A stretch of DNA of 64,000 nt from Octopus vulgaris (Eukaryota): contig OX597826.1 of assembly GCA_951406725.2 (NCBI GenBank), forward strand, positions 13,144,001-13,208,000, read 5' to 3'. Both the position numbers and the translations under genes were made by a program. The notes under the pieces are model-generated. The model saw only the letters and a list, made by a program, of their open reading frames with translations, had not been told where the DNA came from and ran no database searches. Positions 45,940-46,571 of the stretch are shown here, in pieces (within the stretch, counting starts at the first letter, position 1; each line of letters starts with the position of its first letter).

Positions 45940-46571
45940 TCATATATTACACACCATCAAACGAATGTTCAAAGTCAGTATGGGTAAAAAATATATTAAT
46001 TTCGCAAAAGAGAAAACTCTGTTTCCTCGGGACATCGGCTGCTTTCCTGTAAACGACTTCTCGCCTCTAAACGACTGCTCGCCTCTAAACGACTGCTCGC
46101 CTCTATACGAGGGCATGTTGCTACTGTCTGGTTCATTCCGAATTTGCGGTGCTGTACGCTTGTCGTATTGACACCAGTTCCCCATATATTCACTCGAACA
46201 AGAGCATTTAAAACTTCGTTGACGTTGGTGGTATCGGCAAGTCCCACCATTCAGACAGGGTTTCTGCACACAATAGTTTTTATATTGGCATTCGGGACCA
46301 GTTATACCAAGAGGGCAGATGCATTCTTCACGACCTTCACGAGCATATGACAAACAGGTACCGCCATTCCTGCAGCGAAGTCGCTTGCATTTATTGATGA
46401 GAATTTCACAACGTCGTCCAGTAAATCCGTTGCGACACTCACATCGGCTCAGACCTATGCATGTACCACCGTTTCTGCAAGGGCACGGTAGATAAAGTTC
46501 ACAGTTCTTTCCTCCGTAATCGCTGGGACAAGAGCATGCATAATCATCGAAATATTCGACACAGGTACCTC
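45940..46571 (-). CDS. Dll: Delta-like terminal coding exon (EGF6-9, repetitive stalk, hydrophobic tail, TGA)
   Basis: ttcag|GA GGT ACC... Open to TGA at 45942-45940, with repeated CxNGGTC O-fucose consensus motifs. Ends ...[30 protein letters not shown]. Confidence 0.9.

Follow-up and report, generated by a model that had tools for sequence, protein, structure and literature searches.

The window analysed here, a 64,000-nucleotide stretch of the Octopus vulgaris genome (contig OX597826.1, positions 13,144,001 to 13,208,000), carries a Delta-family gene on the minus strand whose predicted protein is 624 amino acids long. From N- to C-terminus this protein comprises a signal peptide, a C2 domain, a DSL domain, nine EGF repeats (counted by eye), a polar stalk of 46 residues and an end of 30 residues, and the conceptual translation of the joined exons contains no cytoplasmic tail. 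Pfam matches cover the MNNL (C2), DSL and EGF domains, and the best match in the PDB is DLL1 (4xbm, E 4.8e-130). Seven coding exons fall within the window, with AG acceptors at all seven and GT donors at six; joined, they give an open frame of 506 codons, to which 118 upstream residues are added in the complete protein. The main C2 exon is located outside the window at about C13:13247010-13247320, ~39 kb past the window end, and the signal-peptide exon, a hydrophobic N-terminal exon judged by eye, has its start codon at ~G000:C13:13298564, ~90 kb past the window end.

In the order of translation, and all on the minus strand, the exons encode the middle of the C2 (MNNL) domain (58239..58299), the end of C2 together with the complete DSL domain (56137..56391), the first part of EGF1 (54356..54416) and the end of EGF1 with EGF2 (52896..53026), these two making up the DOS region, followed by EGF3 and the start of EGF4 (51416..51582), the end of EGF4, EGF5 and the start of EGF6 (48597..48810), and finally the end of EGF6, EGF7-9, the stalk, the C-terminal signal and the stop (45940..46571). 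The reading frame of this last exon (46569..45943) agrees with that of the first-pass annotation and is terminated by a TGA at 45942-45940, 76 residues after the last EGF cysteine. Beyond EGF9, the polar stalk (46033..46170) leads to a predicted omega serine (46030..46032) within an S-R-G triplet that is common to all three octopods and is followed by 29 residues. These consist of a partly hydrophobic spacer from omega+1 to omega+10 with a lysine as its last residue (46000..46029) and a terminal hydrophobic block of 19 residues (45943..45999) with a KD mean of 1.75, four polar or helix-breaking residues and nothing behind it. The start of the 3' UTR occupies 45882..45939, where contigs stop near a TA microsatellite.

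Two further features of the last exon vary among species. The stalk contains an in-frame 18-nt tandem repeat of 3.6 copies (46046..46110, minus strand), which is varied in O. bimaculoides and absent from Argonauta, resulting in an Octopus stalk ~18 residues longer than that of Argonauta; stalk length looks free to vary. EGF7 (about 46400-46490, within 46190-46571) is shorter in the three octopods than in the other related proteins described below, a single residue separating its first cysteine from the second.

Transcription through the stop codon

Among 24 sequencing runs listed, 20 contain this stretch and none is recorded as RNA; eight were compared with the last exon. Runs X1, X3, X9 and X17 were taken to be RNA because their contigs contain the spliced junction between this exon and the preceding one. 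Contigs from two studies, X1 (1955 nt) and X3 (826 nt), are spliced at the exon junction at 46572 and continue through the TGA into the 3' UTR, reaching 45882 and 45898, respectively, with no differing letters, gaps or joints. Ahead of the junction the X1 contig holds 1265 nt, compared with 1243 nt of coding sequence, a length that fits a full-length mRNA. Run X15, which is probably DNA, crosses the whole exon with no indels, and runs X13, X14, X17 and X19 cover it partially, showing no indel or joint and none extending to the stop; uncovered parts in X9, X13, X14, X17 and X19 count as no evidence.

These contigs bear on the explanation that an assembly error or a read-in intron accounts for the stop and that genuine transcripts splice to exons encoding a transmembrane (TM) segment and tail, which we consider scarcely credible. 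Its main basis is the public O. vulgaris model P0014, identical to the window exons over 384 residues, which departs at a GT at ~46309 inside EGF8 to a small exon near 44496 and lacks EGF9 and the tail; in addition, contigs lose rare isoforms, such that a minor spliced form could escape. However, the X1 and X3 contigs are unchanged through 46309, through a GT at 45954 that had been flagged as a cryptic donor, and through the stop, while X13 and X14 also bridge 46309, so that we rejected the P0014 ending on the unspliced passage of four runs. The alternative end of P0014 is likewise without a cytoplasmic tail, and orthologues stop at the same place. Either splicing out before the stop or a frameshift error in the last exon would have undone the earlier reading of a tail-less ligand; the X1 and X3 contigs are unspliced through the TGA, and the X1, X3 and X15 contigs show no indel. 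Since the X1 and X3 contigs pass the stop with neither indel nor splice-out, a frameshift or use of the cryptic donor does not explain it. The tail-less ligand is therefore real and transcribed, and is also conserved, with the O. bimaculoides and Argonauta orthologues ending at the same position.

A candidate alternative exon, suggested by a loose end at 46529 in X9, was rejected as a library chimera: it rests on a 60-nt contig from one run, and its letters are absent from the window, map to C1 (L001:1501-1530) and have no splice signals. Single-base variants occur at 45923, 46054, 46267 and 46590 in X14, X15 and X17, with 46054 and 46267 located inside the coding exon.

The gene is the mollusc paralogue Delta2

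He et al. 2021 (PMC8166818) named a mollusc Delta2 clade showing early termination, including in O. bimaculoides and O. vulgaris, which they read as loss of the TM domain and ascribed to a stop or frameshift. Judged from the tree and from shared accessions, the gene in the window is this published mollusc-only paralogue, and the tail-less ligand is hence known, mollusc-wide and not octopus-specific. In a tree of 54 N-terminal regions, in which the window is represented by P0014 and from which P0186 and P0199 were left out as missed by the DSL pattern, a branch (100/99) separates 17 Delta2 rows from the rest, which includes 13 mollusc Delta1 and 7 Jagged rows. In Table S2 of PMC8166818, the O. 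bimaculoides protein XP_014771450.1 (P0001) and the scallop protein XP_021356594.1 (P0026) stand second in the Delta column without a label, a place that Delta2 occupies in those species whose entries are labelled. P0001 shares 86% identity with the octopus protein across the last 150 residues, with the same end and the same kind of tail, and Argonauta P0019 also has the same end position and kind of tail. Three strong matches to the C2 domain occur in the genome: besides the window gene, C6 carries a Delta1 that has a TM helix and tail, and C16 a Jagged-like gene. The octopus gene thus combines MNNL, DSL and EGF repeats with early termination and no intracellular domain, in a genome that also holds a full-length Delta1. 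By both tree and Table S2 accessions, the suggestion of a new, lineage-specific octopus ligand is not upheld.

Profile searches recovered bivalve and gastropod relatives (among the best 150 of 2845 matches and the best 120 of 925), and no squid, cuttlefish or Nautilus Delta2 was found among the named matches listed. As read from these sequences, the Delta2 clade is widened here to caenogastropods (Pomacea, Babylonia), more bivalves and Argonauta, most orthologues being predicted gene models. Separately, C9 carries two similar genes ~230 kb apart (L015:2378-2521 and L016:2167-2310), each having EGF exons behind a DSL-like exon that is degenerate; they are not Delta1, Delta2 or Jagged.

The DSL and DOS positions were read by eye in seven rows. 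At the positions of Jagged1 F199, R201, R203 and F207, the octopus protein has F, R, R and L, keeping three of four, and the same four DSL positions are all kept in Argonauta and Pinctada (4/4) and none in Pomacea (0/4). Over EGF1-2, the spacing fits the published DOS consensus (PMC2504490), and the K/V/E/R position is occupied by Ser in the three octopods and by Arg in four other Delta2. The first-pass description of a full ligand with DSL, DOS and nine EGF repeats needs correcting at the DOS region, which departs from the consensus at one position. The same DSL face is reported to be used in both cis and trans binding (PMC3415683).

The C-terminal end differs from Delta transmembrane helices

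To compare C-termini we used the window and 16 orthologues from cephalopods, bivalves and gastropods (n=17, representing ~10 independent lineages). Left out were P0025 from Pinctada, the model of which stops after EGF6 with no hydrophobic end, the mis-spliced P0014 and same-species duplicates; P0186 was included though it stands outside the tree. All 17 intact Delta2 tails have 0-19 residues behind their most hydrophobic 19-residue span and at most one Lys there, the longest extensions including those of Babylonia and Littorina (15-19 residues past the block). Mollusc Delta1 tails have 84-238 residues and 7-19 Lys. Mean hydrophobicity over the 19-residue span (KD19) ranges from 1.11 to 2.31 in Delta2, with a median of 1.87 (n=17) and the weakest values in Ylistrum (1.11) and Patella (1.25); it is 2.96-3.37 in mollusc Delta1 TM helices (n=14) and 2.35-3.44 in those of other Deltas (n=23), with zero overlap with Delta2. 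Across these molluscs, the cytoplasmic tail is absent and the end is less hydrophobic than any of the Delta TM helices compared. The octopus end, at 1.75, has neither the TM helix with basic residues nor the Lys-containing intracellular domain of a canonical Delta. A search of the ESM Atlas with two tails returned no usable match.

That the block is a degenerate but true TM helix with almost no cytoplasmic tail, making Delta2 a truncated type I membrane antagonist that still could not be ubiquitylated, appears unlikely to us, though it has the most to commend it among the alternatives discussed here. A 19-residue span with a KD of 1.75 is present, and Delta2 stops are reported to fall 1-10 residues past the post-TM arginine of Delta1 (PMC8166818). 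On the other hand, none of the 17 tails reaches the hydrophobicity of even the weakest of the 37 Delta TM helices, and the octopus block contains P, N, R and N and then ends, whereas Delta TM helices are followed by 2-7 basic residues within the next ten positions. A conserved triplet at omega distance, described below, also argues against it.

Evidence for a GPI anchor signal

A polar stalk, a small triplet, a short spacer and a weak terminal hydrophobic block are the usual look of GPI signals, which are marginally hydrophobic, and the CEACAM family offers a precedent for a stop that turns a TM end into a GPI signal. Stalk and tail sequences are little conserved in Delta2, yet this order of elements is kept in three mollusc classes. 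The octopus end, with its omega Ser (46032-46030), Arg, Gly, 10-residue spacer and 19 hydrophobic residues, fits the pattern of small omega, non-Pro +1, small +2, spacer and hydrophobic end given in PMC10491789.

Sequence comparisons applied to this pattern had differing outcomes. Under a generic GPI rule (small omega, non-Pro +1, small +2, spacer of 8-12, 15-20 hydrophobic residues, polar linker), 13 of the 17 Delta2 tails pass, the octopus one at S-R-G; against stalk shuffles, for which a mean of 9.8 pass, the excess is marginal (4.6% of 2000 reach 13). Virtual truncations pass it as well, 88 of 140 for Delta1 and 135 of 230 for other Deltas, and the rule hence does not separate Delta2 from truncated Delta1; its blindness to the difference between a truncated TM helix and a GPI signal is a point in favour of the short-tailed helix considered above. 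Similarly, an overall enrichment of small residues before the block is seen in Delta1 too and is not discriminating. The partly hydrophobic spacer of the octopus end and the 15-19 residues past the block in Babylonia and Littorina also speak against a GPI signal. What does separate Delta2 from Delta1 is the lower hydrophobicity together with a post hoc triplet, [NS][SR][GASC] located 2-14 residues ahead of the block, which occurs in 14 of 17 Delta2 tails and 3 of 14 Delta1, against a mean of 1.6 tails in shuffles (0 of 5000 reach 14), a figure that overstates the case given that the motif was defined after inspection of the tails and that the 17 rows represent ~10 lineages.

The proposal of a GPI anchor in the first-pass annotation thus gains comparative support across molluscs from the block and the triplet, and is unproven since the generic rule also passes 63% of artificial Delta1 truncations. 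On balance we favour the view that the Delta2 end carries a GPI anchor signal common to snails, clams and octopuses; the predicted signal probably has a single origin, the TM end of a Delta duplicate in early conchiferan molluscs.

A different outcome, which we regard as improbable, is that the tail provides no anchor, with Delta2 being secreted, or retained in the ER/Golgi like DLL3, and either competing in soluble form or having little activity. This would accord with the interpretation of the end as a lost TM domain (PMC8166818) and with the Ylistrum (1.11) and Patella (1.25) tails, which fail the generic rule and would make poor anchors. Nevertheless, a terminal hydrophobic block is present in 17 of 17 tails from three classes despite their unconserved sequence, and soluble Drosophila Delta, when purified, is essentially inactive (PMC2173041).

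A possible mode of action

Taking the preferred GPI-anchored reading, we give even chances to an overall explanation in which Delta2, which has no intracellular domain, is likely GPI-anchored after loss of its last 29 residues, is displayed on the surface and likely binds Notch, damping rather than triggering it. Transamidation would occur at the Ser of S-R-G, with the last 29 residues swapped for a GPI anchor that would keep the protein on the cell surface. There it may bind Notch, as suggested by the presence of three of the four Jagged1-defined DSL residues, though the erosion of these positions in orthologues such as Pomacea weighs against this, and it would offer no substrate for ubiquitylation by Mind bomb or Neuralized, and thus no endocytic pulling on Notch. 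Such a lack of ubiquitylation and pulling would lead to cis-inhibition or to competition with Delta1, the outcome being a weaker response to Delta1 and Jagged, and possible release from the membrane by a lipase would turn the inhibition off. The inhibitory role is inferred by analogy: a decoy or cis-modulator role is proposed because engineered tail-less Delta behaves in this way. In particular, DLL1 without its tail is dominant-negative, probably via cis-inhibition (PMC4482573). In PMC8166818, expression of Delta2 is described as lower than and complementary to that of Delta1, which is compatible with a modulator role and no proof of one.

The opposite proposition, that GPI-anchored Delta2 activates Notch through clustering, raft-dependent uptake or action as a co-ligand of Delta1 or Jagged, or that it has drifted to a non-Notch adhesion function, strikes us as rather doubtful. 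Clustered or immobilised soluble ligands can activate (PMC2173041), C. elegans soluble DSL and DOS proteins act as activators (PMC2504490), and the uneven conservation of the DSL positions leaves room for another partner. Against activation, the favoured route to Notch activation is ubiquitination and endocytosis of the ligand (PMC3415683), and tail-less DLL1, as described above, inhibits.

Relationship to known Notch ligands

Relative to canonical Delta, including Delta1 and DLL1, Delta2 shares the C2 and DSL domains, EGF1-2 (the DOS region) and the EGF array, and is without the strong TM helix, the basic stop-transfer cluster, the lysine-rich tail and the C-terminal ATEV motif. Among other ligands, vertebrate DLL3 keeps a TM helix and tail, and F3/contactin is a GPI-linked non-canonical Notch ligand. 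Engineered tail-less DLL1 or Delta (PMC4482573) and DLL3 (PMC7353046) belong to the DSL ligands and act on Notch as inhibitors instead of activators, a behaviour that Delta2 may share, although the tail-less forms are artificial and DLL3, unlike Delta2, has a degenerate DSL domain and resides in the Golgi (PMC7353046). GPI-linked non-canonical ligands combine a GPI anchor with a link to Notch and are without DSL or DOS (PMC7353046, PMC2504490), whereas Delta2 has the complete DSL-ligand architecture. DSL-1 and the OSM-11/DOS proteins of C. elegans resemble Delta2 as Notch ligands with no cytoplasmic tail (PMC2504490); they differ in that they are secreted, carry either DSL or DOS but not both, and activate Notch.

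The closest precedent is the Delta2 of PMC8166818 itself, which is the same gene with the same MNNL-DSL-EGF architecture and early termination; there a loss of the TM domain is described, whereas we propose a conserved GPI-signal-like end. The words 'GPI' and 'anchor' are absent from its main text, the accessible part of a 2024 review of invertebrate Notch (PMC10970066) contains neither 'Delta2' nor 'GPI', and PMC2948274 holds nothing relevant to the GPI reading. A search by title and abstract, drawn mostly from outside subscription journals, found no publication proposing a GPI-anchored Delta2 or DSL ligand. It is plausible, then, that the anchoring proposal is what is new here; the tail-less gene is already in print, and if there is no GPI anchor, the result is one already known.

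More tentatively, at a little short of even chances, a Delta duplicate of conchiferans became the first canonical (C2-DSL-EGF) ligand to be naturally GPI-anchored, and cephalopods, bivalves and gastropods have retained it as a releasable, lipid-tethered partner of Delta1 that antagonises Notch. If true, such a ligand would join the transmembrane and secreted types as a third design. It would let one ask, in a natural setting, if a ligand that can be neither ubiquitylated nor pulled in is confined to inhibition, and if cis-inhibition is tuned by lipid anchoring or lipase release. It would also bear on the Notch control of shell patterning and of cephalopod neurogenesis.

Other features of the window

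The window additionally contains a tandem array at 59865-61469, consisting of 15.9 copies of a 102-bp unit with 99% matches, the unit deriving from a short interspersed repeat of which further copies are scattered through the window; either the array was amplified very recently or it was expanded in assembly. A ~1 kb AAT-type trinucleotide repeat with a GC content of 7% lies at 41029-42100. On the minus strand, a frame at 3010-3354 resembles the DNA-binding part of a Tc1/mariner transposase, and two short frames with C2H2-like motifs (42481-42807 and 55014-55262) resemble the 3' ends of LINE retrotransposons.
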